Below, one piece after another: positions 8,261-28,880 of a stretch of 32,000 nucleotides of DNA. Numbering within the stretch: the first letter of the stretch is position 1; every line of letters starts with the position of its first letter. The notes beneath the pieces are model-generated. The model searched no databases and had not been told where the DNA came from. It saw only the letters and a program-made list of their open reading frames with translations. Made by a program: the position numbers and the translations under genes. The DNA comes from an uncultured Opitutales bacterium (lineage in GTDB: Bacteria; Verrucomicrobiota; Verrucomicrobiia; Opitutales; Intestinicryptomonadaceae). The stretch spans positions 61,312-93,311 of the forward strand of contig CAKUIA010000009.1 of NCBI GenBank assembly GCA_934660865.1. The letters are read 5' to 3'.

Positions 8261-11059
<2,799 letters not shown>

Positions 11060-11091
11060 TTGTCGGAAGTATAACATCTAAAAAACAAAAA

Positions 11092-11124
11092 GCCTCCGAA
11101 GTTTTTTTTCGGAGGTTTTTTTTG
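11092..11124. terminator. Bidirectional rho-independent terminator between ppdK and the MFS gene
   Basis: The stem CCTCCGAA (11093-11100) pairs with TTCGGAGG (11108-11115). A T-run follows on the plus strand (11116-11123) and an A-rich run precedes it, which reads as a T-run on the minus strand. It lies between two convergent genes. Confidence 0.7.
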
Positions 11125-11160
11125 CGTTTTTATCGGGCTTGGAATTTTTTAATTTTCGCC

Positions 11161-12378
11161 TTATTGCGGTTTGTTAAGCGATTTTTCCTTCATTGCCTTT
11201 ATTGTTCTAACTTTCGGCAAAAAGTAGGCTACAATGCCCAGTAGCGGCAAAAATGCGCATATGGAATATACAAATTCTATGCCGTATACGTCGGCAATTT
11301 TGCCGAGTGTTGCCGAGGCAATGCCCGCCATGCCGAACGAAAAGCCGAAAAATATTCCCGAAATAAGCCCGACTTTGTGCGGCATTAGCTCTTGTGCGTA
11401 AACCAATATTGCCGAAAATGCCGACGACATTATAAAGCCTATTATTGCGCTTAAAACTATGGTGCACTCGAAATTTGCATAGGGCATTAAAAGCGCAAAA
11501 GGCGCCGATCCCAAAATGGACCACCATATTACCAAGCGGCGCCCGTATTTGTCGCCCAAAGGCCCGCCGATAAGTGTGCCCAAAGCCGCCGAAAACAAAA
11601 ACACAAAAAGAAGGGCTTGCGCCGTTTGCACGCTGGCCGAAAACTTGTGCATTAAGTAAAAAGTGTAGTAGCTTGAAATGCTTGAGGTGTAGAAATTTTT
11701 TGAAAACACCAAAAACATTAAAAGCGAGATTATGAAAATTACCGTGCGTTTTGGCAGTGTTGCCTGCGGTGTTTGCCGCGCGTTTGTTGCGGCGTTTTGC
11801 ATGTTTTGCCTTATGCGGCGGTAATACCACCTGCAGGCGGGCAGCATTGCAAACAAAGCTACTATGCCCAACAGCGCAAACTTTATCATTCCCGACTGCG
11901 TTCTTAAAAACATTGCAGCCAAAAGCGGGCCAAGCGCATAGCCGGTAGAGCCGCCCACTTGGAATATGGATTGGGCCAAGCCCCTTTTGCCGCCCGAGGC
12001 AAACGAGGTTATTTTAGAGGCTTCGGGGTGTATTACCGACGAGCCTATGCCCGAAAAGAAAACCGACGCCATTAAACAGTATATATTGGGCGAAAGCGAT
12101 ATGCCCGCAATGCCGAGCATTGTGCTGCACATGCCCAAAGGCAAAAACAGCGCGCTCGGTTTTTTGTCCATAATGTAGCCGAAAATAGGCTGCATTATAG
12201 ACGACGAAATTTGGTATGTAAAAATAACCATGCCAACCTGTGCATAGCTTAGCGCCATTTCGCTTTTTATTACGGGGTACATTGCCGAAATTACCGACTG
12301 TATGGAGTCGTTAAACCCGTGCGCCATCGAAAGCGATACGAGAATTGAAAACATAAATGCGCTATTTTTCTTTTGCAT
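11161..12378 (-). CDS. MFS transporter (Fsr/fosmidomycin-resistance-like subfamily)
   Basis: 405 aa and hydrophobic throughout, with about 12 predicted TM segments. The N-terminal text FSILVSLSMAHGFNDSIQSVISAMYPVIK...IMQPIFGYIMDK resembles Fsr-type MFS proteins. The substrate is unknown. Confidence 0.8.
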   Translation of the reverse strand: MQKKNSAFMFSILVSLSMAHGFNDSIQSVISAMYPVIKSEMALSYAQVGMVIFTYQISSSIMQPIFGYIMDKKPSALFLPLGMCSTMLGIAGISLSPNIYCLMASVFFSGIGSSVIHPEASKITSFASGGKRGLAQSIFQVGGSTGYALGPLLAAMFLRTQSGMIKFALLGIVALFAMLPACRWYYRRIRQNMQNAATNARQTPQATLPKRTVIFIISLLMFLVFSKNFYTSSISSYYTFYLMHKFSASVQTAQALLFVFLFSAALGTLIGGPLGDKYGRRLVIWWSILGSAPFALLMPYANFECTIVLSAIIGFIMSSAFSAILVYAQELMPHKVGLISGIFFGFSFGMAGIASATLGKIADVYGIEFVYSICAFLPLLGIVAYFLPKVRTIKAMKEKSLNKPQ

Positions 12379-12544
12379 ATTCTATACGCGGTTTAACCGT
12401 ATTTTTTTATAAATCAAGCATTTTTATTTTTATGCAACATTCGGCTTATATAATGCGCAAAAGATATGTTTTTTTGTGAATATAAAAATCTTAAAATTTT
12501 CTTGAATCGATATACTGCAACTGTTAGACGTTTTACTTAAACTT

Positions 12545-13777
12545 ATGAAAACCTTATTTAAAGCGTCAATAGCACTAATACTAACTTCGTTTTTCGGCAT
12601 TTTGAATGCCGAAACAATGAAAAGCATTCAAGATTACGGGGTGTTGCCCACCAACAGTCCCGAAGTTAACCGCGACAACCTGCAAAAGGCCATAGACGAA
12701 GCCACCGACAACGGCGGAATTTTGTTTGTGCCGCCCGTAGCAAGGGGCTACCCGATAGCCAGCGGCGTAATTTTAAAGCGCAATGTTTCGCTTGTAGGCG
12801 CAAACGGGCCTTTGGGCAGGGGTTCTACTGTAGAATTTAAAACGCACCCTAAATTTGAGCCTGCAGGTTCCACATTCAGAATAATGGACGCCGAAAAACC
12901 CTTTATCACGGTTTCGCACGCAACCAAAATAAAGGGCATACAGTTCTATTATCCGAAACAGGGGCGCACTCCCGAAACGATAATAAAATACCCGCCCACG
13001 ATTCAGCAGGACACCTATGCCAATTCGGTAACTTTGCAAGAGCTTACCTTTTGGGGCGAATATATTGCAATGAATTTTGCCGACACAAAGGGCACTTGCG
13101 AGCAGATTTTGATAGAGCACTGCTACGGCTACCCCTATAGCGGCGAGTTTATAAGAATAGACCACTGCGCCGACATAAACAGAATTTTGCACTGCCACAT
13201 AAACCCCGACAATATGAGGGGCTTTAGGGGCACTATGCCAAAGTCGGTAATAGACCATATTGTAGCGCAGAAAAAGTACGCAATATGGGTGGGCCGCGGC
13301 GACAACATTGTTATAATGGACTTGCACGTTTTCGGTCTATACGGGGCTTGCTACTTTAGCACGGCAAGCTACGGGCAGCTTACAAGCTTTTCGTTCGACT
13401 GCGTAGTTAACGGTATCTATAAAAAAGGCGGCGGGCAAAAGCACCACCAGTGGATGATTTCGCAAGGCTCCATAATTGCGAATGCGGGAACAAATATAGA
13501 CGAAGTTTGGCCTATTGTTATAGAGGGGCAAGGGCACACTTCCATTGCCAATGTAGAGGCCTTTTCGGGCGGAAACGGAGCAATTACAAATGTTGGCGCC
13601 TCCAAAGGATTTTTGCTTGTAAAGGGCAACGACCCCCTAACTGTTGCCTTAAACGCCTGCCGAATGAACAACTATGTAGACGACGAACCCATACAGGTGA
13701 AAAACAAAAAGGCAAGCCTTAGGGCAAGAGACTGCGTGGGCAAAGATTTGCAGTTTTTCGACTTGGAAATAAAATAG
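12545..13777 (+). CDS. Secreted right-handed beta-helix protein (pectate-lyase-superfamily / GH55-GH28-like N-terminus), paralogue 1
   Basis: 410 aa with signal peptide MKTLFKASIALILTSFFGILNA. The text IQDYGVLPTNSPEVNRDNLQKAIDEA..GGILFVPP..GYP is the typical opening of pectate-lyase-3-type beta-helix domains. Confidence 0.7.
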   Translation: MKTLFKASIALILTSFFGILNAETMKSIQDYGVLPTNSPEVNRDNLQKAIDEATDNGGILFVPPVARGYPIASGVILKRNVSLVGANGPLGRGSTVEFKTHPKFEPAGSTFRIMDAEKPFITVSHATKIKGIQFYYPKQGRTPETIIKYPPTIQQDTYANSVTLQELTFWGEYIAMNFADTKGTCEQILIEHCYGYPYSGEFIRIDHCADINRILHCHINPDNMRGFRGTMPKSVIDHIVAQKKYAIWVGRGDNIVIMDLHVFGLYGACYFSTASYGQLTSFSFDCVVNGIYKKGGGQKHHQWMISQGSIIANAGTNIDEVWPIVIEGQGHTSIANVEAFSGGNGAITNVGASKGFLLVKGNDPLTVALNACRMNNYVDDEPIQVKNKKASLRARDCVGKDLQFFDLEIK

Positions 13778-13833: not shown

Positions 13834-15075
13834 ATGAAGATGAAAAAATATATAAAAAGCATTGCGCTAATTTCGCTTGCCATATTTGCCGGCATTTTGA
13901 ACGCCGAAACAATGAAAAGCATTCAAGACTACGGGGTGTTGCCCACCAACAGCCCCGAAGTTAACCGCGACAACCTGCAAAAGGCTATAGACGAAGCCTC
14001 GAAACGCGGCGGGGCTTTGTTTGTGCCGCCGGTAGGCAGGGGCTACCCAATGGCCAGCGGCATTGTGTTAAAGCACAACGTGTCTTTAATTGGCATAAAC
14101 GGGCCTTTGGGCAGGGGCTCCATTGCAAAGTTCGACGAACACCCAATGTACGACCCCGCAAGCTCGGCATTCAGAATAATGGACGCCGACAAACCCTTTA
14201 TTACAATTCAAAGCTACACCAAAATTAAGGGCATACAATTCTATTATCCCAAACAGGGGTGGACACCCGATAAGGTAATAAAGTATCCGCCCACAATTCA
14301 GCAGGACACTTTTGCCCTTTCGGTAACCTTGCAGGAATTGTCATTTTGGGGCGAATATATTGCAATGAATTTTGCCGACACAAAGGGCACTTGCGAGCAG
14401 GTGCTTATAGAGCATTGCTACGGCTATCCCCTAAGCGGCGAGTTTATACGCATAGACAACTGTTCCGACATAAACCGCATTTTGCACTGCCATATAAACC
14501 CCGGTACAATGAGGGCTTTTAGAGGCGACTATATGCGAAAAGGCATGGTAGACTATGTTGTAAACCAGAAAAAATACGCCGTTTGGATAGGCCGCGGCGA
14601 CAATATCGTTATAATGGATTTGCATGTTTTCGGCGCATACGGGGCATGCTATTTTAGCGAAAGAAGCTACGGGCAGCTTACAAACTTTAGCTTCGACTGC
14701 GTTGTAAACGGCATATACAAAAGCGGACGCGACCAAAAGCAGCACCAGTGGCTAATTTCGCAAGGCTCTATAATTGCAAACGCGGGCACAAATATCGACG
14801 AAGTTTGGCCGATTATCATAGAGGGCAAAGGGCACACATCAATTACCAACGTAGAAGCCTTTTCGGGCGGCAACGGTGCCCTTGTAAACGTGGGGGCTTC
14901 CAAGGGATTTTTGCTTGTAAAGGGCAAAGACCCGTTGACGGTTTCGATGTACGGTTGCAGAATGTATAAATACACCGACAAAGAGCCGATTCAGGTTTTA
15001 AACCGCAAGGCAAGCCTTAGGGCAAAGGACTGTGTAGGCAAGGATTTGCAGTTTTTCGACTTGGAAATAAACTAA
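13834..15075 (+). CDS. Secreted right-handed beta-helix protein, paralogue 2
   Basis: 413 aa, collinear with the preceding gene over its full length, roughly three quarters identical by eye. It has its own signal peptide. Confidence 0.7.
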   Translation: MKMKKYIKSIALISLAIFAGILNAETMKSIQDYGVLPTNSPEVNRDNLQKAIDEASKRGGALFVPPVGRGYPMASGIVLKHNVSLIGINGPLGRGSIAKFDEHPMYDPASSAFRIMDADKPFITIQSYTKIKGIQFYYPKQGWTPDKVIKYPPTIQQDTFALSVTLQELSFWGEYIAMNFADTKGTCEQVLIEHCYGYPLSGEFIRIDNCSDINRILHCHINPGTMRAFRGDYMRKGMVDYVVNQKKYAVWIGRGDNIVIMDLHVFGAYGACYFSERSYGQLTNFSFDCVVNGIYKSGRDQKQHQWLISQGSIIANAGTNIDEVWPIIIEGKGHTSITNVEAFSGGNGALVNVGASKGFLLVKGKDPLTVSMYGCRMYKYTDKEPIQVLNRKASLRAKDCVGKDLQFFDLEIN

Positions 15076-15096: not shown

Positions 15097-16938
15097 ATGA
15101 TGAAGAAAATTATAACTATTGCCTGTGCGCTTTTTGCCGTAGCCAACTTTGCTTTGGCCCAATACAGCGCAAAGGGAGACAAAATTAAAACCGCCTGGGG
15201 TGAAAAATTAACCGTCGAAAATGTGTGGAGCGAATATCCCCGCCCGCAAATGACAAGGGGGCAGATAGACAAAAAAGACGCCGTTTGGCAAAACCTTAAC
15301 GGCTTGTGGGATTATTCCATTTGCGCAAAAAACCTGCCAAAGCCCGAAAAGGCCGACGGCAAAATTTTGGTGCCCTTTGCGGTGGAATCTTCGTTGTCGG
15401 GCGTAATGAAGCTGCTAGACGACAAAAGCGCGCTTTGGTATGAAAGGGAGTTTTCCGTTCCCGAAAACTGGAAGCAGGGCAGGGTGCTATTGCATTTCGG
15501 TGCGGTAGATTGGCAGGCCGAAGTTTTTGTAAATTCGGTAAAAGTGGGCGAACACACTGGCGGCTATGCCCCCTTTAATTTCGACATTACCGAGGCTTTA
15601 AAAGACGGCAAAAACACGCTAACAGTTAAGGTGCTAGACCCAACCGACAAGGCTTTGCAGCCTCGCGGCAAGCAGGCGTGCGAGCCTAAATCTATTTGGT
15701 ATACCCGCGTAAGCGGCATTTGGCAAACGGTATGGCTAGAAAATGTGCCCACGGTTTTCATAAAAAATTTGAAAATCGTTCCCGATTTCGACAACAATTC
15801 GTTTAAGATTACAACCACGGCAAACGAGTTGGTAAAAGTTAGCGCAACAGTTTACGCCGGCAGGGAAATTGCGGGCAAAGCACAGGGCGTTTCGGGCGAA
15901 CAGTTCTCGGTTAAATTGGCAGGCAATGCAAAGGCGTGGTCGCCCGACAATCCGTTTTTATACGATATTAAGGTGGAAATTTCGTCTCTAAAAGACGGCA
16001 AGGTTTTAGACACCGTAAACGGATATTCTGCAATGCGCAAAATTTCCATGGCAGTTTCGAAAGACGGTTGGAAAAGAATTTTGCTAAACAATAAGGAGAT
16101 TTTCCAAATCGGCACGCTAGACCAGGGTTGGTGGCCCGACGGACTGTATACGCCGCCCTCCGACGAAGCTATGAAGTTCGACATAGTAAAAACAAAAGAG
16201 CTTGGTTTTAATATGATAAGGAAACATATTAAGGTTGAACCCGCCCGCTGGTATTGGCATTGCGACAAACTTGGCATGCTTGTTTGGCAGGATATGCCGA
16301 GCCTTGGCAACGGCCCGAAATGGAGCCAAACCGAGTTTGTTAGCGACGAACCCAATTTTATAGACGGCAAATCGCGCGCAAACTACCGCAAAGAGTGGCG
16401 CGAAATTATGGAAAGCCTATATTCATTCCCCTGCATAGTTATGTGGGTGCCCTTTAACGAAGCCTGGGGGCAGTTCGATACAAAGGAAATTGCCGAATGG
16501 ACAAAGTCTATGGACGATTCAAGGCTTGTCAACGCAGCAAGCGGCGGCAACCATGTGCGCTGCGGCGACATTCACGACATTCACCACTATCCGCAGCCGG
16601 GAACTCACAATATAATAGATTTGGCGCGTGTAAACGTTGTGGGCGAATACGGCGGCATTGGCATGGTAAAAGAAGGGCACTTGTGGATTAGCGGCAAAAA
16701 GAATTGGGGCTATATAACAAAGAACGACGCCGAAACGGTTTCGGACTTGTATGTAGATTATGCCAACCAACTTTTGGGGCTTTCAAGCAAGGGCATTTGC
16801 GCGGGCGTTTACACCCAAACGACCGACGTAGAAGGCGAAGTAAACGGCCTTATTACCTACGACCGCAAAGTAATTAAAGTTAACCCCGAAAAAGTCCGCA
16901 AAGCCAACAAAAAGCTTATAGATTCTTTGGGTAAATAA
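15097..16938 (+). CDS. Glycoside hydrolase family 2 protein (beta-galactosidase / beta-glucuronidase-like), secreted
   Basis: 613 aa with signal peptide MMKKIITIACALFAVANFALA. The GH2 sugar-binding text is WYEREFSVPENWKQGRVLLHFGAVDWQAEVFVNSVKVGEHTGGYAPFNFDIT. The TIM-barrel text is IRKHIKVEP..WYWHCDKLGMLVWQD, with the acid/base region WVPFNEAWGQ and the nucleophile region VVGEYGG. Confidence 0.85.
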   Translation: MMKKIITIACALFAVANFALAQYSAKGDKIKTAWGEKLTVENVWSEYPRPQMTRGQIDKKDAVWQNLNGLWDYSICAKNLPKPEKADGKILVPFAVESSLSGVMKLLDDKSALWYEREFSVPENWKQGRVLLHFGAVDWQAEVFVNSVKVGEHTGGYAPFNFDITEALKDGKNTLTVKVLDPTDKALQPRGKQACEPKSIWYTRVSGIWQTVWLENVPTVFIKNLKIVPDFDNNSFKITTTANELVKVSATVYAGREIAGKAQGVSGEQFSVKLAGNAKAWSPDNPFLYDIKVEISSLKDGKVLDTVNGYSAMRKISMAVSKDGWKRILLNNKEIFQIGTLDQGWWPDGLYTPPSDEAMKFDIVKTKELGFNMIRKHIKVEPARWYWHCDKLGMLVWQDMPSLGNGPKWSQTEFVSDEPNFIDGKSRANYRKEWREIMESLYSFPCIVMWVPFNEAWGQFDTKEIAEWTKSMDDSRLVNAASGGNHVRCGDIHDIHHYPQPGTHNIIDLARVNVVGEYGGIGMVKEGHLWISGKKNWGYITKNDAETVSDLYVDYANQLLGLSSKGICAGVYTQTTDVEGEVNGLITYDRKVIKVNPEKVRKANKKLIDSLGK

Positions 16939-17622: not shown

Positions 17623-17699
17623 GGGGTGGTAGTTCAGTTGGTTAGAACGCCTGCCTGTCACGCAGGAGGTCGCGAGTTCGAGTCTCGTCCATCCCGCCA
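17623..17699 (+). tRNA. tRNA-Asp (anticodon GTC), CCA encoded
   Basis: Hand-folded cloverleaf of 77 nt. The acceptor GGGGTGG pairs with CCATCCC. The D arm is GTTC-AGTTGGTTA-GAAC. The anticodon arm is CCTGC-CTGTCAC-GCAGG, with GTC at the centre. The T arm is GCGAG-TTCGAGT-CTCGT. The discriminator is G and the terminal CCA ends at 17699. Confidence 0.95.
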
Positions 17700-17705
17700 C
17701 TTTAA

Positions 17706-17739
17706 AAGCCGCAAGTTCAAACACTTGCGGCTTTTTTTG
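17706..17739 (+). terminator. Rho-independent terminator after tRNA-Asp
   Basis: The stem AAGCCGCAAG (17706-17715) pairs with CTTGCGGCTT (17724-17733), whose last bases run into a T-run extending to 17738. Confidence 0.75.
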
Positions 17740-17841
17740 TTTCTACATTTCGCGCCAAACCCAGTATCCACGCGGTTTGCGGGGCTGTGATGCCGCGCAA
17801 AGCCAGTATTTAAGCCACTTGCGGCGGAACGCCCGCCCGCC

Positions 17842-17862
17842 CAAAAACCGCCAAAATTGGCG
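17842..17862 (-). terminator. Terminator of the four-gene ATPase operon
   Basis: The palindrome CGCCAAAATTGGCG (17849-17862) is followed on the minus strand by GTTTTT (complement of 17843-17848). It lies downstream of the last operon gene (stop at 17947). Confidence 0.5.
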
Positions 17863-17864
17863 TT

Positions 17865-17908
17865 TTGTTGGTGGTTTTTCCAACAATTCACCAACAAAAA
17901 TCCAACAG
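17865..17908. repeat. Phased heptamer array: one inverted copy plus three direct CCAACA(A/G) copies at 11-bp spacing
   Basis: TTGTTGG lies at 17865-17871, CCAACAA at 17880-17886, CCAACAA at 17891-17897 and CCAACAG at 17902-17908. In addition, 17865-17873 (TTGTTGGTG) is the exact reverse complement of 17889-17897 (CACCAACAA). Confidence 0.65.
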
Positions 17909-17946: not shown

Positions 17947-18369
17947 TCAACGTTCGCGGGCGAACATATTTTTGATTCGCGCCCAGAGGGTGGGGTTAAG
18001 CGCGGAGATTCGCTCCAAGTAGATTTCGGCGATTGGCTCTTCAATCTGCGGACATTCGACTTTTACCGCAGCCTCATACGCCGAATAGGTGTCTTTCGAG
18101 AAGGCATTTGCAAGCAAGGCTTGCAATTCTTCGTGCTTTTGGCGCGAAACTTTTACCGTGGGCGTTCCCTTTTTGGGGAACAATGACCTGTCGAGAAAGT
18201 GGTGCTTGTCCGGCGTTGCCAATCCTGCGGCACTTTTGCCGATATAGACTTTTCTCGTTCTAAGCTCGTCTGGAACTTTCGTTCTCTTCGCCGCCTGTTT
18301 TATAAAGGCATCATACGGGTTGTTTGTATCGAACCTGTCCTTGTGCTTGTTGAATGTTGCCAATTTCAT
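17947..18369 (-). CDS. Hypothetical protein, fourth gene of the ATPase operon
   Basis: 140 aa, MKLATFNKHKDRFDTNNPYDAFIKQAAKRTKVPDELRTRKVYIGK.... Its ATG directly follows the upstream stop (TAAATG at 18372-18367). I recognise no motif. Confidence 0.6.
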   Translation of the reverse strand: MKLATFNKHKDRFDTNNPYDAFIKQAAKRTKVPDELRTRKVYIGKSAAGLATPDKHHFLDRSLFPKKGTPTVKVSRQKHEELQALLANAFSKDTYSAYEAAVKVECPQIEEPIAEIYLERISALNPTLWARIKNMFARER

Positions 18370-18588
18370 TTAGTTCCTTTCGTAAGCGATTTGCTTTGCC
18401 GCCATCAGGCGCGAAACGTGCCGAAACGGCAGCTGAGCGACTCCTTCCATTGCGAAACAAAGTTCGCGGTTTCTGCGGCGGTATGACATATACCTGCCGT
18501 CGCGTTTGTATTTTGTGTGGGGGGTATTTTCTTTTTCCATATTTTTTAACATTGCGATAAAATGTGTATCGGTCTCAAAATTTATCAT
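18370..18588 (-). CDS. Small basic hypothetical protein, third gene of the ATPase operon
   Basis: The track ORF is 18370..18633. The internal ATG at 18588 (MINFETDTHFIAMLKNMEK...KYKRDGRYMSYRRRNRE...) overlaps the ATPase stop as ATGA (18588-18585), so I prefer the 72-aa form. Confidence 0.5.
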   Translation of the reverse strand: MINFETDTHFIAMLKNMEKENTPHTKYKRDGRYMSYRRRNRELCFAMEGVAQLPFRHVSRLMAAKQIAYERN

Positions 18589-20009
18589 CTGCGCGGAGTC
18601 CGAGCCAAGGCGTCCCTCAACCCTGCCAAACATTCTCGTTCTACATCGGGTTCTGTGCGCGGATTTCTATGTGGAACGTCCACAAACAGCCGTTCGAGCT
18701 TTACGGCGCAAGGCGTGCAAAAACCGTTCGCCAGCTTGACGAATGCGTATCCCTGCGGCAGATTTTCGGGCGAAGTAAATTCCTCGCGCGGTTCTGTATC
18801 GTCAGCATTGAAGCCGATGTTTGGGCGCGGAGGCGGAGCATATGCCGCGAACTCTACAAGTTTGGCGGCTTCGGGCTCGGACGTTCTAAACACGAAAAGG
18901 TTGTTGATGTTTGCGAGCAGATGGGCGCGTTCCCTTTCGCCGATTGCCAAGTCGAGAGCAACAATTCCCTGTGTTGCGGCAATGGCAAAACCGCCTTTGC
19001 TGCGCATTGTTTGGAGGTTGTAGGAATCGCTTGAAATGTCGCGACCGCCAGTTGCAACAAGCGGGAATTCGTCCATAACAATTCCCGCAATGCGGTTGTC
19101 GGGAGAGTCGCCGCGAAGCTGTATAGTCCTATAAAATTGGGCTTTCGCGAGTTTCGCCACGATTGCCGCCGCAAACTGGTTTGTTGTCGCGGGAAATGTC
19201 AGAACGACAATCTTCCCGAACTTTGCGGTGTCTCCGATATCCAAAAGCTTTTTGCCGCTTAAAAAGTTTCGGGTTGTCCGATTTTCGAGAAGCGCGAGTG
19301 TGTTTGTCATAGTGCTTATCTCGTTGCTTTTCGTGCGCGAATCGAGCTTTTGCCACTCCGACAGGTCGGATTTTAGCCGCTTTGCAATGCGCTTTATCTG
19401 CGCCCAAGCCGCGTTTTTTCTCGATTTGTCAACGGCTTCGCGCCGGCAGATTTCGGGCAAAGCGGAAGAGATGAAATCCCGCCATTCGTCGATTTTGTCC
19501 GAATCCAAAAAATCCCGAAACGAATCGGTGAATTTGTCGAAATCCATCGAATCGTGGCGGAAGAGACAGAAGTTAAAAATTGTATTCAAACGCTTGCGGA
19601 ACGCCATTGTCCAATACACGTTTTCGCCGCTGTTGTCGCCGAATGCGGACATCAGGAAATCTACAAGTTCCGAAACTTTCGCGGACGAGTCCGCTTCGGC
19701 AAAAGGATTGATGTAGTAGTGTCCGTCGCCCGAGAAGTCCACAACATCGCGCATTCTGCCGCATTCGTGCGCCCACTTTTTGATTTTGCAAAGCGTACCG
19801 TCGTTTTTGAAATCGAAGAGCAACAAGCCTATTTTCCGCCTCTTGTCGTCTGCGCGAAAGGCAATCAGCCCGCGCAATAGGGCGTTTAGCGATGTTGTTT
19901 TGCCGCTGCCCGTGCTGCCGATAAAAAGCGTGTGCTTGCAAAGGGTGTCGGCGGTCAGGACGATTTCCCTACCGCCGCCGTTTAGCTTTGTTATAATTTC
20001 GTCTTTCAT
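18585..20009 (-). CDS. Soluble VirD4/TraG/TraD-like P-loop ATPase (FtsK-HerA superfamily) with no N-terminal membrane anchor
   Basis: The track ORF is 18585..20081. The ATG at 20009 overlaps the upstream stop as ATGA (20009-20006), giving 474 aa. Walker A is FIGSTGSGKTT (19893-19919). Walker B is GIVMDEFPL, with the DE pair at 19068-19073. These are followed by MRSKGG, AIAATQGIVALD and LFVFRTSEPEAAKLVEF. A helical insert of about 150 aa separates the two Walker motifs, as in type IV coupling proteins. Confidence 0.8.
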   Translation of the reverse strand: MKDEIITKLNGGGREIVLTADTLCKHTLFIGSTGSGKTTSLNALLRGLIAFRADDKRRKIGLLLFDFKNDGTLCKIKKWAHECGRMRDVVDFSGDGHYYINPFAEADSSAKVSELVDFLMSAFGDNSGENVYWTMAFRKRLNTIFNFCLFRHDSMDFDKFTDSFRDFLDSDKIDEWRDFISSALPEICRREAVDKSRKNAAWAQIKRIAKRLKSDLSEWQKLDSRTKSNEISTMTNTLALLENRTTRNFLSGKKLLDIGDTAKFGKIVVLTFPATTNQFAAAIVAKLAKAQFYRTIQLRGDSPDNRIAGIVMDEFPLVATGGRDISSDSYNLQTMRSKGGFAIAATQGIVALDLAIGERERAHLLANINNLFVFRTSEPEAAKLVEFAAYAPPPRPNIGFNADDTEPREEFTSPENLPQGYAFVKLANGFCTPCAVKLERLFVDVPHRNPRTEPDVERECLAGLRDALARTPRR

Positions 20010-20485
20010 GCGAAAATGCCAATGGGCGTCAAAATTTCCTCGGCAGGCGTTGGACGGTCGTTTCCGAATCGTGCCCGCCAAAGCCTTGCCAACTCTTCCC
20101 TTGCTTCGAGGTCGTAGGCGTTCTCGAATATTTCGCGGAACTTCTCCCTCGTTATCCTCCCGAAAACGCCTTTCTCTTCAAGAACGGGAAGAAGGCTGTT
20201 TTCCACCATTACAACTTCCGCCCAGACATCGTCGGGAAGCGTCAGTCTTCGCCAAAGCGGTTTTTCGAAATTCCGCTCCGCAAACAAAAGTGCCGCGATA
20301 TCCGTTTGGGGTATTTGGTATCCGTCCGAAACAATCCGCCCGAACGCCTCGTAGACCAAAGGATTTAGGCGCAAAAACATTACGGGCAAAAGCGAATGTT
20401 TCTTGATAAACGCGAGTATTTCCCCGTTCAGCGCGCCTTCGTTTTTGTCAATCATTTCAAGTAGTTTTAGATATAATTTATTCAT
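20006..20485 (-). CDS. Hypothetical protein, first gene of the ATPase operon
   Basis: 159 aa, MNKLYLKLLEMIDKNEGALNGEILAFIKKHSLLPVMFLRLNP.... It looks helical and I recognise no motif. Its stop overlaps the ATPase start. Confidence 0.6.
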   Translation of the reverse strand: MNKLYLKLLEMIDKNEGALNGEILAFIKKHSLLPVMFLRLNPLVYEAFGRIVSDGYQIPQTDIAALLFAERNFEKPLWRRLTLPDDVWAEVVMVENSLLPVLEEKGVFGRITREKFREIFENAYDLEAREELARLWRARFGNDRPTPAEEILTPIGIFA

Positions 20486-20516: not shown

Positions 20517-20639
20517 ATTTGCGTCTAAAAATTTACCTGAACTAAGTTTGACATGCTGCGAAATATTCTTCCATAGTCGATAAAATTGCATTTAACTGCA
20601 AAATTACAGAGTGTAGACGATTATTTTACAAAAAAACAC

Positions 20640-20675
20640 TTGCAAAATAATATTTTATAGCCGATTATTTTGCAA
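20640..20675. promoter_or_regulatory. Perfect 12-bp inverted repeat (operator candidate) upstream of the AAA+ ATPase gene
   Basis: TTGCAAAATAAT (20640-20651) and ATTATTTTGCAA (20664-20675) are exact reverse complements with a 12-bp spacer, 20 bp upstream of the ATG at 20696. A third, direct half-site CGATTATTTTACAAA lies at 20618-20632. Confidence 0.45.
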
Positions 20676-20695
20676 ATATTGAATATTTTTAGGTT

Positions 20696-21967
20696 ATGGA
20701 CGAATATTTTGCAGGCATAGAGAAATTTAACTTTTGGGGAGATAATCCGCCCGATTTGGGATTTTCGCGCAAATTTTATCTCGAAAAAATAGCGGCGTAT
20801 TCGGAGAGCAAATTGATAAAGGTTCTCGTCGGGCAAAGGAGGGTCGGCAAAAGCTACATTCTGCGGCAAATACTTTTTTCACTCGTAAAAAGCGGACTTC
20901 CAAAAGAGAACACCCTTTACATAAACCGCGAATACGCCGAGTTCGGCTTCATAGAAAGCGCGGAGGATTTGGAGCGCGTCTTTGCCGAATATAAAAAGCG
21001 GATGTCTCCGAAAGGCAAAATCGCCATGTTCATCGACGAAATACAGAACATAAACGGCTGGGAAAAATTCGTGAATTCGCACTCGCAGGATTTTACCGAA
21101 GAATGCGATATCTACATAAGCGGCTCGAATTCTAAAATGCTTTCGGGGGAGCTTGCGACGTTGCTTTCGGGGCGATATATCCAGTTCGAGATTCTGCCGT
21201 ATTCGTTTGTAGAGTTTGCCGAGGTAAACGGACTTTCCGCCGATAGGCAGGCGTATTTGAAATACCTTGCAACGGGCGGGCTTCCCGCTCTTACAACGCT
21301 TCCGACCGAGGAAAGCCGACGCAACTATGTAGACGCGTTAAAAGACACCGTGTTGTTGCGCGACATCGTGCAACGATACAATATAAAAGACCCGAATCTG
21401 CTGGAAAATCTTTTCGCGTTTGCCGTAAACAATTCGTCGTCGCTGATTTCAATCGGCGGCATCGTCAAATACTACAAAGGCAAAAATAAGGCGACGACCT
21501 ACGAAACCGTTTCGTCATACTTGGAATATATGCAAAATTCGTATATTTTGCACAAAGTTGATAGATTTGATATGCGCGGCAAGGAAGTATTGTCGGGCAA
21601 AAGCAAATACTACCTCAACGATTCCGCCTTTCACAACTACCTTTTTGCAGGCGTTGGCTACGGGATAGGATACCAGCTCGAAAACCTGGTTTATCTCGAA
21701 TTGCGCAGGCTCGGCTTCGATGTTTTTGTGGGGACTACGAGGACAAAGGAAGTAGATTTCGTGGCGAAGAAAAGCGACCGTGTTGTTTACATTCAAAGCT
21801 GTTATTTGCTATCCGACGAAGAAACCGCCAAACGCGAATACTCGGCGTTGGAGTCGATTCACGACAACTACGAAAAATACGTTGTTTCGCTCGACGATGT
21901 AAAAATGCCGAACCGCGGCGGGATAATCCACCTGCGCGCGTGGGAGCTGCAAGACGCGCTCAAATAG
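20696..21967 (+). CDS. AAA+ ATPase of the AAA_14 + DUF4143 architecture
   Basis: 423 aa. Walker A is VGQRRVGKSY (20831-20854 covers GQRRVGKS) and Walker B is IAMFIDEIQNINGWEKFV. The C-terminal half (VDFVAKKSDRVVYIQSCY...) resembles the widespread, uncharacterised DUF4143-type ATPases. Confidence 0.75.
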   Translation: MDEYFAGIEKFNFWGDNPPDLGFSRKFYLEKIAAYSESKLIKVLVGQRRVGKSYILRQILFSLVKSGLPKENTLYINREYAEFGFIESAEDLERVFAEYKKRMSPKGKIAMFIDEIQNINGWEKFVNSHSQDFTEECDIYISGSNSKMLSGELATLLSGRYIQFEILPYSFVEFAEVNGLSADRQAYLKYLATGGLPALTTLPTEESRRNYVDALKDTVLLRDIVQRYNIKDPNLLENLFAFAVNNSSSLISIGGIVKYYKGKNKATTYETVSSYLEYMQNSYILHKVDRFDMRGKEVLSGKSKYYLNDSAFHNYLFAGVGYGIGYQLENLVYLELRRLGFDVFVGTTRTKEVDFVAKKSDRVVYIQSCYLLSDEETAKREYSALESIHDNYEKYVVSLDDVKMPNRGGIIHLRAWELQDALK

Positions 21968-21969
21968 CG

Positions 21970-22908
21970 TTATTTTGCCTTGGCGGTTTCTTTTTCCAAA
22001 GCTTTCTTATTTTCGCGCTCTTCGTCGGCTGTCTGCCTTTTTAGGATTGTGCGCAAAGTTTCTTCGCTGTCCACATCGTCGGAGAATTCTTTGCAAACGT
22101 CGTCGAATTCTGCGGAACTATACTCTTTAACGAAGCTGTCGCGGAACTTTTTCAACGCCTGCTCAGGCGTATGATTTTTTCGGTCATATAATGCGAAAAA
22201 ATGGTGTTCGTATTTGCTGCGTTCGGTAATGTCGTCCCTGCCGTCGTTCGAGTCTGAAATGCAATTAGGGTGGCACGCAAAGACAACGGCGATATATTTG
22301 CCGACGTTGCCGTTGTATTTTTGAAATTCTACATTGCGGACAACCAGCCCGTAGCGTCGGCGCGGAAGCTTTGTTCGCTTGTCGGTTGGAACAATTTTGC
22401 GCCGAAGCGGAATTTTAAAATCCCTTTTCAGAATGCGCGTAATCGAAGAGGGCGGATATATCGCCTTTCTGTCTTCGGATTGCGTTTTATCGGCGGGCTG
22501 TTTTGATTTCACGCTTTGAGGTTTGCGCCTTTGCTTTTTTGAAGTCCATTTGTATCTGCACCCGCAAATGTCGTCGCGGCATTTATTGAGCTCGCCGCAG
22601 ATTTTCGAGCGCGTTTGAATTTCACCCGAGGTGAGGCAGTCCAAAATTAGTTCGTTGCGGGCGTTCAAGTTCGACGCCGGCGGCCGTCCGCGCCCGCAAT
22701 ACGGTATGTCAGCGTAAAGCCTATGCACTTCTTCGGCTGAATCGAAATCCCCTTCTTCGCGGATTATTTTTAGCATTCTGCGAATATGCGCAGGCTTGAT
22801 TGGCGAATCTTCCAACTCGAGTTTTCGATACGCATACCCGACGGAGCAATCCCCCAGCGATTTCAGTGCGTCGTACGTTTTCTCGAAAATTGTTGCATTT
22901 GAAGCCAT
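21970..22908 (-). CDS. Hypothetical protein with a Cys cluster and a basic linker, divergent partner of the helicase
   Basis: 312 aa. It contains the Cys cluster CGELNKCRDDICGCRY, the basic stretch TSKKQRRKPQSVKSKQ and a KE-rich C-terminal tail. I recognise no enzymatic motif. Confidence 0.55.
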   Translation of the reverse strand: MASNATIFEKTYDALKSLGDCSVGYAYRKLELEDSPIKPAHIRRMLKIIREEGDFDSAEEVHRLYADIPYCGRGRPPASNLNARNELILDCLTSGEIQTRSKICGELNKCRDDICGCRYKWTSKKQRRKPQSVKSKQPADKTQSEDRKAIYPPSSITRILKRDFKIPLRRKIVPTDKRTKLPRRRYGLVVRNVEFQKYNGNVGKYIAVVFACHPNCISDSNDGRDDITERSKYEHHFFALYDRKNHTPEQALKKFRDSFVKEYSSAEFDDVCKEFSDDVDSEETLRTILKRQTADEERENKKALEKETAKAK

Positions 22909-22928
22909 TTGATATTTTATATAAACAT

Positions 22929-25343
22929 ATGTTAGACGAACTGAAATTCAAAGCTTTTTTACAAGAAACCCTCAATCGGGCACCCGATGACGACCAAATG
23001 GCGGTTCTTCGCGAAATCGCGCGGGTGGCCGAGTCAAATGAGGCTTTGAATTATTTTAGGGTTGGCGCAAGCGCGGGCTCGGGAAAAACCACACTGATTT
23101 TATTTGCCTATGCCCTGCTCAGAAAATTTTGCGGAGTCCACAGTAATCAAATCGTAATTCTTACGCTTAATACACGCATCTCCAACAAGATTAACCTCGA
23201 AATCAAGGCGATTGAAAACAAACTGGAGGAACCCGAGCTTTCGGACGTTTGCGCATACACATTCCACGCATTTGCCATGAGATTTTTGAGAAAAGTCTCT
23301 ATGAAAAAAGGCGACATATTAACAGAAAATGCCAGTGTCTATCATAAAGATGTTTCATATAAGTTCCAGAATTTTATAGGCGAGGAATATCTTGACGATG
23401 AAAAGTTCCGAAAAGACATCGACAATCTCGATTTTCTTGCACATTCGGAGGCGGACTGTTCGACCGAAAAGTCGAAAAAAGTAATGTTGTCGGAGAGGCT
23501 GTCTGACTTCGGAATTTCGAGCAACGGAGCTGTGCTTCGCGGCGACATTGGCAGGCGTTGCTCGAAGGAATTTCAACAAAACCGCACGCTGCGCGGGGAC
23601 TCGTTATTGGACTCGGCGGGGAATCCGCTACCGCAAGCTTTTCAGAAGAGAATCTGCGACATCGCAAACCGCCTTTTCCTTTGGGACATAAACTACGACT
23701 TAAAAATTTGCGACGCCCGTGCGATAATTTCGATTATCGACAACTCTGACTTTGGACAAAACCGGTCTGCCGAATCGGCAAGGCGAAAATCGTATATTGA
23801 AATCGTTGACGGAGACCAAGACGACAATATGTTTTACGGATCGCTTTTGGTAAACGGCAAGTTTTTGAAATCTTTGCCGACGCAACCTACGCCCGAAGAT
23901 TGGCTAAAGTTTTCGCCCGAAGAAACGCCGTCTGACATCGCCGAATTGAGGGAATTTTGCAACGAATGCAATGCCAATACGGAAGGGCAGAAAATTAAAG
24001 ACCTTTCCGGCCTCACATACATCGGCAAGGACGAACTATCGAAGTTCCTAATGGAAATAATAGAACGGCTGAGAGCCGAAGGGAAGATAAGCGTTGTGCC
24101 CAAATCCGGCAGTATGGACGTAAAGACATATGTGGATAAAATATTAAAAAAGTATTCGTCGTCGAATGGTAATGTAGAATCGGGAAGTAATTTAATCGGA
24201 GGAAGCGTAAAAACGCGCGCACAAATCGAATCTTTTTTCAATATCCTATCTACTACGTTGTGCGAACTCATTGACGTAAACTTCGAAACATTTTCAGCTG
24301 TTATGGAAAAGGCGGTCGGAAAAAGTCCGTTGTCGAGTAGGTGCGAAAAAATGCTTAGCAATTTGCGTTTTGTGTTTGTTGACGAAGCTCAGGATATGAA
24401 CCGCGTTTTTGTAGACGTTTTAAAAGAAATTAGAAAGTGTGCGCCCGCCGCCAATTTCATAACGGTAGGCGACCCGGCGCAGGCAATTAACAGGTTTATC
24501 GGCGCACATCCTACGCTGTTTTTGAATTTGGCAAATCCGTCGAAGTCTGTGGACATTCCCAAAGACGGCGCGGATACAGGCGACAACACCAACCATACTC
24601 CCCAAGGGCAGGAAAACCCGTTCGGTAATTTCAAAGTAAAACGCTTTGAGTTGCCAATCACATATCGAATGGATTTAAAGCTTGTTAATGCCGCCAATAC
24701 TTTCAAAAATTTCAAGCGTGTAAAAAGCGACAATTCAAATTCACCCGACATGCGGCTATTCGGACTTACCATGCGTCCGTGTGCCGGAAAAACAAGCAAT
24801 GGGGATATTGAGGTTCACTGCATCGCGCCGAAGGTTATGTCGGAATTTTCAAAAAAGTTCTACGATACGCTTTGCGGGATAATCGAAAAGGAATTGGCGA
24901 AAAATGAAGACGCCGATTTTGCACTGCTAGCCAGAACAAACTTGGTGGATTCGATAGGCGATTTGGAGCTGATTAGACAAAAAACGCTGTCGCTATTGAA
25001 ATCGAAAGGCGTAAAACTCTCCCCCGCGAAATTGAGAGCTTCAACCGTCCATAGATACAAGGGCGAAGAAGCCGACTGTGTCGTAATTCTCGATGCGACG
25101 GACAAAAACTATCCGAAACACTTCGATGAAACGGCGGAGAAAATCAAGCAAATCCTCTTCAATGATCCGCCAAGTGCATATTATGACGATTCGGTAAACT
25201 TGTTCTATGTCGCCATAACGCGAGCCCGACATTCGCTGCACTTCATTTGCAACGACAACCCAAGCGCATTTTTGACGAGGGCGGGAATTTTGACTGCACG
25301 GACACGGCTCAATGAGAGGGAAGCCAGCCAAGACGTCCGCTGA
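22929..25343 (+). CDS. UvrD/Rep/PcrA-like superfamily 1 helicase with an enlarged region between motifs I and II
   Basis: The track ORF starts at a TTG at 22800. The first ATG at 22929 gives 804 aa. Motif I is GASAGSGKTT (23064-23093), followed by TFHAFAMRFL. Motif II is FVFVDEAQDMN (DEAQD at 24381-24395) and motif III is ITVGDPAQAINRFIGA. Then come ELPITYRM and ALLARTN. Motif VI is TVHRYKGEEADCVVIL (from 25044), followed by LFYVAITRARHSLHF. Confidence 0.85.
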   Translation: MLDELKFKAFLQETLNRAPDDDQMAVLREIARVAESNEALNYFRVGASAGSGKTTLILFAYALLRKFCGVHSNQIVILTLNTRISNKINLEIKAIENKLEEPELSDVCAYTFHAFAMRFLRKVSMKKGDILTENASVYHKDVSYKFQNFIGEEYLDDEKFRKDIDNLDFLAHSEADCSTEKSKKVMLSERLSDFGISSNGAVLRGDIGRRCSKEFQQNRTLRGDSLLDSAGNPLPQAFQKRICDIANRLFLWDINYDLKICDARAIISIIDNSDFGQNRSAESARRKSYIEIVDGDQDDNMFYGSLLVNGKFLKSLPTQPTPEDWLKFSPEETPSDIAELREFCNECNANTEGQKIKDLSGLTYIGKDELSKFLMEIIERLRAEGKISVVPKSGSMDVKTYVDKILKKYSSSNGNVESGSNLIGGSVKTRAQIESFFNILSTTLCELIDVNFETFSAVMEKAVGKSPLSSRCEKMLSNLRFVFVDEAQDMNRVFVDVLKEIRKCAPAANFITVGDPAQAINRFIGAHPTLFLNLANPSKSVDIPKDGADTGDNTNHTPQGQENPFGNFKVKRFELPITYRMDLKLVNAANTFKNFKRVKSDNSNSPDMRLFGLTMRPCAGKTSNGDIEVHCIAPKVMSEFSKKFYDTLCGIIEKELAKNEDADFALLARTNLVDSIGDLELIRQKTLSLLKSKGVKLSPAKLRASTVHRYKGEEADCVVILDATDKNYPKHFDETAEKIKQILFNDPPSAYYDDSVNLFYVAITRARHSLHFICNDNPSAFLTRAGILTARTRLNEREASQDVR

Positions 25344-26014: not shown

Positions 26015-27409
26015 TTAACGATCAAAATCATAACTACGTTGTGTATCTTGCGTAGGCTGGTTTTGTTGCGTCCTACTTTGCGGTGGCGGATACCCTTGTT
26101 GTTGTCCGGTCTGTTGTTTTTGAGTTTTCTGCTGTTCCTTTTCGTGGAAGAATTCTTCCAAATCTTTTATGATATACAAAAATAGTACCATCATTTTACT
26201 ACCATTTGGCGAAAGTTTTTTTTCCCACTCCTGCTGAAATTTTTCTAACGTCGAAACATACTGTATATTTCTGAGAGCATCTGACAACATGCCCCTAACT
26301 TTTGTGCCAGCTTCCGAAATTCGTCTTGTTGTTGTTTTAAGGTTTCTTTCAATTGATAGATTTCCTGGGTGTAGCTTTCCATGATATTCTCTTCCATCTG
26401 ATCCATCGATCTGTTTAGCGCCTCCACTTCCCTCGCCAAATCTTTCGCTATTTCCTGAACCCCCTCGCGAAGAATTCCGTGAATCTGCGACTTGGGTTTT
26501 TTCAACTCGTTCATGAGGATTTCCGCAAACGGCGGAATCATATGATACAGAATTGGCGTTGCTGTTTTTGACATGTTGTCCAATGTTGTTGCTTTGTTCT
26601 GGGTGTTCATAGTTTTTTAAGTATTTATATTTATTTTTAAGACGCGCGTAGCGCGTTTGGGAAAGTTTTTTGTATTGTTCGTCAACATCTACTCCTTCCG
26701 AATCAATCGCACGCGTGTTGTCGTTATTACAAAGATTGCCTGTAAGTTTTATCTTCGTATCTCCCGATTTTACTGTTATCGAAGTGTCGGTCTTTCGGTT
26801 TATGATAAAATTGCTTTGCTTTAAAAACCTTTCGAAATCCTCGCGGTTGTTTATCGCTTTCCCATACTCCGACATCTCATTTTTCAGTCTGAGGAAAAGC
26901 GACTGCTGAGACGAATTCCAATATTTGTTTGCATCGGCAAGTCCCCGCCTGAGCTCGGGCGAATTCGGGTCGGTGAGTTTCGGATATTTTTTATGGATAT
27001 AACGCCCGAACGCCTCGAAGTATTTTCTGTCGTATTTATCGAAATAGACCGGGAAATATCTCCCGCCGACACTCTCCGCCGCAACGAAGTTTAATTCGAA
27101 ATCGTGCTTGGGATTGTCGTGCAAGATGAACAAGTGTTGAAAGTTCGACTTGTCCATATTTGGATAAACCTTCTCCAGAATGTCGTCCATTAACGAAGCA
27201 AGAAACTTTGTCCCTCCAAGCTCCGCAAGCGACTTTTTGTCGCGATAGCAGAACGTCACATAGCCCTTCTTTTTGCTGGATTTTTGTTCGATTTCGCGCA
27301 TAAAACTGTCATAGCAACCGCCGACAATTGTTGAGGGACGCTTGCGTCCTTTTGAATCTACATCGCCGAGCAAGTACTTTAACGTAGACGGTAAATATTC
27401 TATAATCAT
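26015..27409 (-). CDS. Putative mobilization relaxase (MobA/VirD2-like N-terminal domain); the C-terminal half has an uncertain gene model
   Basis: 464 aa. Its ATG overlaps the mobC stop as ATGA (27409-27406), the usual mobC-relaxase arrangement. The N-terminus MIIEYLPSTLKYLL contains a candidate catalytic Tyr. HLFILHDNPKHDFELNFV resembles the relaxase His-rich motif, but only two His align. The Q/P-rich tail is of low complexity. Confidence 0.6.
   Translation of the reverse strand: MIIEYLPSTLKYLLGDVDSKGRKRPSTIVGGCYDSFMREIEQKSSKKKGYVTFCYRDKKSLAELGGTKFLASLMDDILEKVYPNMDKSNFQHLFILHDNPKHDFELNFVAAESVGGRYFPVYFDKYDRKYFEAFGRYIHKKYPKLTDPNSPELRRGLADANKYWNSSQQSLFLRLKNEMSEYGKAINNREDFERFLKQSNFIINRKTDTSITVKSGDTKIKLTGNLCNNDNTRAIDSEGVDVDEQYKKLSQTRYARLKNKYKYLKNYEHPEQSNNIGQHVKNSNANSVSYDSAVCGNPHERVEKTQVADSRNSSRGGSGNSERFGEGSGGAKQIDGSDGREYHGKLHPGNLSIERNLKTTTRRISEAGTKVRGMLSDALRNIQYVSTLEKFQQEWEKKLSPNGSKMMVLFLYIIKDLEEFFHEKEQQKTQKQQTGQQQGYPPPQSRTQQNQPTQDTQRSYDFDR
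26245..26610 (-). other. 121-aa ORF nested in the +1 frame of the relaxase ORF (possible separate gene)
   Basis: The ATG at 26610 has an A-rich leader like other genes here. The product MNTQNKATTLDNMSKTATPILYHMIPPFAEILMNELKK...EIYQLKETLKQQQDEFRKLAQKL has amphipathic, coiled-coil character. The relaxase frame over the same bases reads as G/S/R-rich low-complexity text. Confidence 0.3.
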
Positions 27410-28877: not shown

Positions 28878-28880
28878 TGT

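Follow-up and report, generated by a model that had tools for sequence, protein, structure and literature searches.

What is the function of a four-gene operon that is built around a coupling-type ATPase without a membrane anchor? The question is raised by a locus in an uncultured human-gut Opitutales bacterium (Verrucomicrobiota), which we analyzed within a stretch of 32,000 nucleotides of contig CAKUIA010000009.1 (assembly GCA_934660865.1, positions 61,312 to 93,311), subsequently named the window. The operon (window positions 17947–20485) is part of a ~13 kb element that occupies ~17.7–30.6 kb of the window and adjoins a tRNA-Asp gene. The products of the housekeeping genes that flank it cluster at ≥90% identity with proteins from the metagenome-assembled genome (MAG) of an Opitutales bacterium. 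An initial annotation, made from the letters of the sequence, had preferred to see in the operon a new defence system and had offered an orphan coupling module as the alternative. Because homologues of the ATPase are largely found near relaxase genes, including on its own island, the coupling module is the better supported of the two, although the defence proposal is thereby weakened only. We estimate a probability of roughly 55% that the operon is the element's own coupling or substrate-delivery module, working together with a MobC-relaxase relaxosome and a borrowed type IV secretion system (T4SS).

The operon consists of four overlapping minus-strand open reading frames (ORFs), given here in operon order:

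20485–20006 (−): p159, 159 aa, opens the operon; stop codon overlapping the start of the ATPase gene (ATGA)
20009–18585 (−): ATPase, 474 aa from ATG
18588–18370 (−): p72, 72 aa
18369–17947 (−): p140, 140 aa

The sizes and the stop-start junctions that had been described for these genes (ATGA at 20009–20006 and at 18588–18585, TAAATG at 18372–18367) are confirmed by reading the sequence. Approximately 95 related loci, designated with an L and a number, were collected and then subjected to a census with hidden Markov models (HMMs) built from the island's own proteins. A scan of GTDB genomes with the full ATPase alignment was dominated by P-loop patterns and gave 3 loci only; the query for a metagenome scan was rebuilt from the C-terminal half of the ATPase and gave 80 loci. 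Three human-gut clades emerge from this census: clade I ATPases are 88–95% identical to that of the window, whereas the ATPases of clade II (489 aa) and clade III (470 aa) share ~44% and ~45% identity with it, respectively. Clades I and II retain p159-ATPase-p72-p140 with the same overlaps, and dozens of independent metagenome contigs show the block again in identical order and with identical overlaps. Where clade I and II loci have enough flank, p159 is present in 29 of 29, p72 in 34 of 36 and p140 in 32 of 34; the four genes are strictly co-conserved in these two clades, and the co-conservation that the initial annotation had presupposed is borne out. A few clade III loci retain homologues of p72 (51 aa) and p140 (149 aa) downstream of an unrelated 538-aa protein, and many carry the ATPase alone, including loci in which it is paired with a TrwC relaxase (for example L030 and L059). 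The 538-aa protein, which has no family match in Pfam or PADLOC, is encoded between the ATPase and the p72- and p140-like genes (L002 15444–17682; L006 11586–12092; L029; L074); in several loci insertions lie between its gene and that of the ATPase, or an IS3-family transposase has truncated it (L007).

The central protein of the operon can soundly be classed as a soluble member of the FtsK/HerA superfamily that resembles type IV coupling proteins (T4CPs), in agreement with the initial annotation. It carries the motifs FIGSTGSGKTT, GIVMDEFPL about 275 residues later, MRSKGG, AIAATQG and LFVFRTSEPEAAKL; the Walker A motif GSTGSGKTT (residues 31–39) and the Walker B motif VMDEF (residues 311–315) are invariant across the 28 members of the family alignment. 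In Pfam the protein matches TrwB_AAD_bind with 42.3 bits (cutoff 20.5) and T4SS-DNA_transf with 21.0 bits (cutoff 20.1), and DUF87 and FtsK_SpoIIIE matches cover the P-loop region. NCBIfam yields weak matches only, to conjugative TraD and VirD4-like CD1115 models, and PHROGs only weak P-loop matches. When a profile of the 28 homologues was searched against the sequences of the PDB, the type IVB T4CP DotL was the sole significant match (E=2.8e-5), and the top plasmid match by tblastn is a DotL-type T4CP adjoining icmP/dotM. PADLOC matches the ATPase to mad8 (E=4e-12); a match to mad3 covers the P-loop only and DndH models match at the level of the P-loop (E~1e-3). HHpred alignments against the PDB served to construct the mad HMMs (bioRxiv 10.1101/2023.03.30.534895), and the mad8 match is therefore generic for the ATPase fold.

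An AlphaFold 2 (AF2) model of the ATPase (predicted local distance difference test, pLDDT, 78) contains an all-helical insert of ~140 residues (~109–250; six helices) between the P-loop and Walker B strands. Searched via Foldseek, this model ranked TrwB first with template modelling (TM) scores of 0.60–0.65 normalised to the target, followed at similar E-values by HerA (TM-score 0.46–0.47), DotL, Cagβ and the C-terminal domain of DndH (TM-score 0.54/0.66); HerA as well as HerA-NurA complexes match significantly. Of the hallmarks of T4CPs we found intact Walker A and B motifs in an FtsK/HerA-type P-loop domain, the all-α insert between them (AF2 model, Foldseek and Pfam) and linkage to relaxase and other DNA-transfer (Dtr) genes, but not the N-terminal transmembrane anchor. 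Hydrophobicity was screened at a Kyte-Doolittle mean of 1.6 over 19-residue windows: no such window exists in the ATPase, and no transmembrane segment was detected in any of the 28 family members. Since the P-loop lies 30–55 residues from the N-terminus in the aligned members, with the exception of one N-truncated sequence, the missing anchor is a trait of the family and not the result of a mis-called start. The family is so far confined mainly to elements of gut Verrucomicrobiota.

The same island carries a relaxase gene and a MobC/NikA-like gene, both of which the initial annotation had missed, together with an integrase gene:

26015–27409 (−): MbeA-like (MOB_HEN) relaxase, 464 aa, assigned by comparison with ColE1-type plasmids (tblastn and BLASTP)
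27406–27918 (−): NikA-like/MobC ribbon-helix-helix accessory protein, 170 aa; overlaps the relaxase gene and is translationally coupled
29238–30437 (−): tyrosine recombinase (integrase), NCBIfam XerD-type (1.4e-11), at the far end of the element

The 464-aa protein has no match in Pfam, NCBIfam or PHROGs. In a tblastn search, however, it matched 2000 plasmids, of which 1980 are typed as mobilizable; the matched plasmid gene is annotated as mbeA in RefSeq, and BLASTP against RefSeq MbeA gives E=3e-15 over residues 1–258. In this alignment LKYLLG with the candidate catalytic tyrosine Y12 falls on VDYLLG with the catalytic tyrosine of MbeA, and motif III (H97...E105-x-N107; LHDNPKHDFELNF) falls on VEHRD-KGRLELNF (H-E-N). 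MOB_HEN relaxases are defined by an H-E-N variant of motif III that replaces the three histidines (PMC12857230), and the 464-aa protein bears both this variant and the motif I tyrosine. The adjacent 170-aa protein matches NikA-like with 28.9 bits (cutoff 27) and MobC with 27.4 bits (cutoff 23.2) in Pfam and shows a weak match to a ColE1-type MobC-family protein. Because the 464-aa protein is a relaxase and is accompanied by an integrase and MobC, the island is an integrative mobilizable element. The location in an integrase-bearing element next to tRNA-Asp had been recognized correctly, and no T4SS gene is present among the window ORFs scanned, as had been stated. Together with relatives of 536 aa (e.g. 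L002 6608–8218) the relaxase constitutes a Verrucomicrobial lineage that is ~26% identical to enterobacterial MbeA.

We then counted relaxases around the ATPase genes of the related loci. Of the gut loci, 27 have an upstream flank of 6 kb or more, and 21 of these carry a relaxase within ~10 kb: 12 are MbeA-like and lie upstream on the same strand, 7 are TrwC relaxases detected with our own HMM and 2 are TrwC relaxases from precomputed Pfam annotation; it was the loci without an MbeA-like relaxase that proved to carry these TrwC (MOBF) enzymes. The order (591-aa unknown)-MobC-relaxase-(variable insert)-(p159)-ATPase on one strand recurs in all three clades, with a gap between relaxase and ATPase that ranges from 213 bp (L037) to 5.8 kb; in L037 and L058 MobC, relaxase and ATPase genes are directly adjacent with gaps of 213–634 bp. 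TrwC genes are found divergent from the ATPase at ~0.5 kb (L057, L059, L071), convergent at 0.7 kb (L046), at 1.3–1.8 kb (L017, L030, L044) and at 3.5–9 kb (L025, L039, L094, L095). In two marine relatives (L083, L085), whose ATPases share ~41–42% identity in the conserved core, TrwC-like genes lie at a distance of ~5 kb. Judging from sequence identities, ATPase, relaxase and MobC diverge in parallel: ATPase and relaxase are 45% and 34% identical between clades I and III, and 48% and 46% identical between clades II and III, where MobC is at 34%. In the sister elements L003 and L013–L015 the four-gene module has ~89–90% nucleotide identity to the window, compared with ~90–92% for the backbone from integrase to relaxase, and behaves as backbone rather than as variable cargo.

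Among 2.9 million viral contigs of IMG/VR one relative was found, L100 (IMGVR_UViG_2914150438_000002), a clade III element with MobC-relaxase-ATPase-integrase; given these genes, the 'viral' contig contains or is a mobilizable element and not a phage. A role in a phage satellite or in packaging was rejected, as the PHROGs matches are weak P-loop matches and the sole relative on a viral contig bears a relaxase. More distant, long-form relatives of the ATPase with a C-terminal extension of 250 aa occur next to DnaB, RVT_3, RecD2-like and AAA/Clp genes; we did not adopt them as a guide to function, these contexts being uninformative.

How could such a coupling module operate? The tyrosine integrase would excise the element, after which the MobC/NikA-like protein and the MbeA-like MOB_HEN relaxase would nick its origin of transfer. 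The soluble 474-aa ATPase, presumably as a hexamer, would receive the relaxase-DNA complex and deliver or pump it into the T4SS of a co-resident conjugative element, to which it would have to dock without a membrane anchor; a helper T4SS is proposed because the island encodes none. The products of the three other genes would be lineage-specific partners of the ATPase. The two basic proteins, p72 and p140, are likely to make contact with DNA or the relaxosome, and the acidic p159 probably regulates the ATPase or serves as an adaptor, by analogy with CagZ-Cagβ and the DotL coupling complex.

None of the three partner proteins has a match in Pfam, NCBIfam, PHROGs or PADLOC, which agrees with the initial annotation and makes them orphan families. 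p159 is acidic (isoelectric point, pI, 5.2) and has no transmembrane segment; a search of 1.84 billion cluster representatives gave only 9 matches (E≤0.001), several of which are repeat-like, and the protein is absent from clade III, where its identification as a domain of the 538-aa protein was rejected (hhalign probability 0.2). p72 is basic (pI 9.9) with a conserved C-terminal core ...LPxxHxxRLxAxKQxAYERN. Its true start is uncertain because gene callers disagree (60, 72 or 87 aa) and only the C-terminal ~57 residues are conserved. The 51-aa homologues of p72 in clade III adjoin a p140-like gene in three loci (L002, L029, L074), and a p140-like gene is also present in the clade III locus L100; in clade II a relative of p140 is encoded by Candidatus Merdousia (Opitutales, Verrucomicrobiota).

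p140 itself is basic (pI 9.7). In a 9-sequence alignment across the three clades the residues H56, L63-F64-P65, G68-T69, S75, K78-H79 and E81-L82 are invariant, and an AF2 model (pLDDT 72) places strands at 54–57 (KHHF) and 71–74 in front of a helix at 76–92 that starts with K78-H79-x-E81-L82. This predicted core resembles a His-Me-finger of the HNH/NinG-like type and makes p140 a weak nuclease candidate: no significant fold or profile match was found in the PDB, all BFVD matches are sub-threshold with NinG in the lead (E=0.35) and DUF968 also present (~9 of the 50 listed are NinG, DUF968 or HNH proteins), and the assignment stayed below significance in every test run.

A T4CP-family protein on a mobilizable element is already known biology, whereas a family that is anchor-less, operon-fused with three orphan proteins and used with two unrelated relaxase families is new. 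TrwB of R388 (PDB 1e9r, 1e9s) likewise combines an FtsK/HerA-type domain with an all-α insert between Walker A and B and is relaxase-adjacent. However, the ATPase described here lacks an N-terminal transmembrane domain, is 12–16% identical to TrwB in structural alignments, and is encoded with three orphan small partners on an element that has no T4SS. A transmembrane domain is not universal among T4CPs, since TraJ of pIP501 lacks one, and some mobilizable plasmids encode their own T4CP, such as CloDF13 (PMC7434980). TraJ resembles the present protein in being a coupling-type ATPase without membrane anchor; it belongs to a self-transmissible Gram-positive plasmid, while the present system is that of a mobilizable element in a diderm host without a transmembrane helix in the proteins checked. 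With MobB of CloDF13 (MOBC1 subfamily) the island shares the arrangement of a non-self-transmissible element that brings its own relaxase and coupling protein and borrows the mating channel (PMC7434980). In contrast to CloDF13, the relaxase here is MOB_HEN (TrwC in relatives) instead of MOBC, and the element is integrative. CloDF13 MobB is membrane-associated.

Closer in sequence is DotL, the best match among PDB sequences, and Cagβ is among the top folds. DotL and Cagβ work with small, poorly conserved partners, and the Legionella coupling complex demonstrates that T4CPs can act with several small adaptor proteins (PMC12857230). Unlike these, p159, p72 and p140 have no detectable similarity to catalogued families, a statement that does not extend to a direct comparison with DotM, DotN, IcmS, IcmW and CagZ; the DotL and Cagβ systems also have their own T4SS, unlike the island. 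ColE1 (mbeA-mbeB-mbeD-mbeC) shares an MbeA-like HEN relaxase and a MobC-family accessory gene with the island. Its MbeB and MbeD families, in contrast, are not matched by p159 or p72; neither gave a Pfam match at E≤1 and we rejected them as MbeB or MbeD equivalents. ColE1 is not known to encode a T4CP and depends on the one provided by the helper.

Several observations weigh against a coupling function. The absence of the anchor weakens membership of the T4CPs without excluding it. TraJ of pIP501 probably relies on the small membrane partner TraI. Here no transmembrane helix was predicted in any island protein checked (a set that leaves out the integrase, AAA_14 and UvrD-like proteins), and a membrane partner is missing altogether among them, in a diderm host. 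From the contigs, no helper T4SS has been identified in the host. The modelled fold alone cannot separate conjugation from defence, as the match to the DndH C-terminal domain is about as good as that to TrwB. None of the partner proteins could be assigned to a family of relaxosome or coupling-complex components, and p140 has a weak nuclease-like signature. Proximity to a relaxase is also expected for cargo on mobilizable elements, so that linkage is not proof of function, and in 6 of the 27 loci no relaxase lies within reach. The four genes of clade II form a discrete cassette of ~2.66 kb whose left boundary is sharp and lies ~30 bp upstream of p159; this cassette occurs in different backbones, including a position between restriction-modification/SNF2 clusters, and is in this respect cargo-like. 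Finally, the locus counts are inflated, many loci being one element resampled from different people; the independent evidence amounts to three deep lineages, two relaxase families and about six distinct arrangements.

Some of these observations would be explained if the operon were a conflict (defence or anti-plasmid) system carried as cargo, in which the ATPase translocates on invading or competing DNA, a p140 nuclease cuts it and p72 and p159 act as sensor or regulator. We consider this possible but unlikely. It would be in line with the mad8 match (4e-12), the structural similarity of the ATPase to the DndH C-terminal domain and HerA, the portable clade II cassette, and the p140 signature, with its invariant histidine in a predicted strand, the helix with K78-H79-x-E81 and the sub-threshold NinG, DUF968 and HNH matches. 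The neighbourhoods, which include PDC-S01, restriction-modification/SNF2 clusters, a TIR-TPR protein and HipA, point in the same direction. However, PADLOC, run on eight island proteins, matched no system, as the initial annotation had expected of a new one, and gave nothing beyond the generic ATPase model; no methyltransferase or other mad gene was identified, and the nuclease assignment of p140 did not reach significance. Furthermore, many clade III ATPases adjoin a relaxase without the three partners or a candidate effector, and the module stays the same in sister elements that differ in their true cargo, and it co-diverges with relaxase and MobC. The initial annotation had let the defence proposal depend on whether ATPase homologues reside at conjugation loci and the small proteins match relaxosome families; the homologues do largely reside at relaxase loci, while the small proteins match no known relaxosome family. 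With a relaxase in 21 of 27 loci and an MbeA-like relaxase and MobC on the island itself, a new defence system is no longer the favoured interpretation. The known defence ATPases, i.e. the C-terminal domain of DptH/DndH, Mad8 of MADS and the HerA-effector ATPases, are soluble and share the fold, but no DptF/G, methyltransferase, kinase, other mad, Sir2 or DUF4297 gene was identified in the island and the present family is linked to relaxases. MADS was rejected since the mad8 model is matched without a methyltransferase, specificity subunit, kinase or other mad gene in the Pfam and PADLOC scans. The ~30 residues before the P-loop hold no HAS-barrel and there is no NurA, Sir2 or DUF4297 partner, which separates the protein from the HerA and HerA-effector systems, and as a 474-aa stand-alone protein without DptF or DptG among its neighbours it does not belong to DndFGH/DptFGH either. 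DptH is a protein of ~1700 aa with a T4CP-like ATPase domain at its C-terminus and is encoded with DptF and DptG.

An involvement in the processing or maintenance of the excised element appears improbable to us. Here the ATPase and p140 would form a HerA-NurA-like pair or act in NinG/Rap-like junction resolution and, with the UvrD-like helicase of the island, would serve rolling-circle replication, resolution or inheritance of the circle. HerA and HerA-NurA among the fold matches, NinG as the top sub-threshold match of p140, the UvrD/PcrA-like gene on the island and the DnaB and RecD2-like helicases next to the long-form relatives would fit. On the other hand, the ATPase has no N-terminal HAS-barrel, its P-loop being 30 residues from the N-terminus, the TM-scores for HerA are below those of T4CPs, outside clade I the module is not accompanied by a conserved UvrD-like gene, and the assignment of p140 is not significant. 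Least probable is a decaying remnant of an ancestral conjugative transfer region without current function. The ATPase is split into 2–3 ORF pieces or p140 is truncated in about a quarter to a third of the metagenome copies, but some of these breaks may be assembly errors in low-coverage contigs; the copy in the window and many others are intact with stop-start overlaps and catalytic motifs kept, and the family has persisted through a sequence divergence of over 50%, its Walker and sensor residues remaining invariant. Broken copies include L001, L032, L033, L042, L048, L050, L055, L067 and L076–L078, among which L001, L055 and L067 have a common internal p140 deletion (…SLFICLMWLRISVC); they are either ongoing decay of the module or assembly artefacts in low-coverage contigs.

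A broader idea, to which we give rather little credence, is that the T4CP-family motor, p72, the His-Me-finger-like p140 and p159 constitute a 'piracy' or conflict module that has not been described before and that serves integrative mobilizable elements irrespective of their relaxase. It could take the form of an anchor-free coupling complex that plugs MOB_HEN or MOBF elements into foreign T4SSs, or that of a motor-nuclease pair that attacks the transfer DNA of the helper or of a competitor in favour of its own transfer. Integrative mobilizable elements exploit conjugation as pirates; they are abundant but poorly understood, and for the Verrucomicrobiota, a phylum with common human-gut bacteria, there is next to no knowledge of them. 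If the ATPase is a coupling protein, it would show how an element that is only mobilizable provides a substrate receptor of its own in the absence of a membrane anchor, and that this works with two unrelated relaxase families, and it would add three orphan families as partners of a coupling complex. If a motor-nuclease conflict system is present instead, it would be a new type of defence, and T4CP-like ATPases near relaxases would not always be coupling proteins. In either case, the divergent MOB_HEN lineage is missed by curated models, and MOB typing of gut metagenomes would overlook such elements.

The remaining features of the element are as follows:

17623–17699 (+): tRNA-Asp (GTC), predicted by ARAGORN; integration target and left element boundary
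17837–17905 (no strand): inverted-repeat cluster of overlapping TTGGYG / CCAACA units between the operon end and tRNA-Asp
20696–21967 (+): AAA_14/DUF4143 ATPase (Pfam), PADLOC defence candidate PDC-S01 (E=4.7e-137)
21970–22908 (−): 312-aa protein of unknown function
22800–25343 (+): UvrD/PcrA-like superfamily-1 helicase (Pfam); longest ORF from TTG at 22800
27993–29189 (−): two backbone genes of 294 aa and 102 aa between integrase and mobC

The tRNA-Asp gene has its own strong terminator at 17704–17735. A repeat array with a terminator had been described at the end of the operon; the inverted repeats are indeed present, whereas the terminator comes down to a weak hairpin of 5 bp at 17862–17849 within the repeat cluster, and terminator-like sites are no more numerous in this region than in shuffled sequence. 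The repeats are conserved with the module in sister elements, and L003 and L004 are homologous to the window from 17655 and 17679 onward, respectively. Possibly they represent the end of the element, arm or binding sites of the recombinase, or another protein-binding array. At the opposite end the integrase stays below its cutoff for Pfam Phage_integrase, and homology to sister elements ends at about 30532–30565 (blastn); neither a direct repeat of the tRNA 3′ end (≥13 nt) nor a convincing local alignment was found at this end. In L003 (~10846–10890) only the 3′ 45 nt of tRNA-Asp (window 17655–17699) follow the module before another block with AAA_14 and HipBA begins, an arrangement that looks like tandem elements sharing the tRNA-Asp attachment site.

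The 294-aa and 102-aa genes occur in the same order in L003, L013, L014 and L032, and their products have no family match in Pfam, NCBIfam, PHROGs or PADLOC. The AAA_14 gene is absent from this position in L003, L013, L014 and L015, where window 20631–21883 is unmatched (blastn), and can be regarded as variable cargo, inserted between the module and the remaining part of the element, owing to this indel among sister elements. We rejected it as a conserved partner of the module: AAA_14/DUF4143 genes are adjacent in several clades but are not orthologous. Such non-orthologous genes adjoin the ATPase module in L002, L003, L006 and L007 as well, which suggests that a preferred insertion spot for AAA_14 genes exists beside the module. 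The UvrD-like helicase probably starts near 22930, since its longest ORF overlaps the start of the opposite-strand 312-aa gene by ~110 nt and it is called as 804 aa in L011; in PADLOC it gives only generic GajB-type matches. Its role could lie in rolling-circle replication once the element is excised, or the gene could be cargo. The island also encodes a 142-aa protein of unknown function.

Candidate defence genes are found around related modules. In L034 a 1008-aa TIR-TPR protein (10393–13419, −; TIR_2/ThsB_TIR with many TPR repeats) is encoded ~1 kb downstream of the clade III ATPase in the same element. A type III-like restriction-modification set composed of SNF2 helicase, DUF4391 or Abi_C, N6_N4 methylase, Fic, and ResIII with RE_endonuc adjoins the module in L093 (1–9226, 12139–21470), L096 (1–8327) and L059 (1847–6303). 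Outside the element, the window carries two adjacent genes for ~410-aa proteins without Pfam match (12545–13777, + and 13834–15075, +), and just downstream of this pair a 613-aa secreted protein (15097–16938) that, from its sequence alone, has the look of a glycoside hydrolase.

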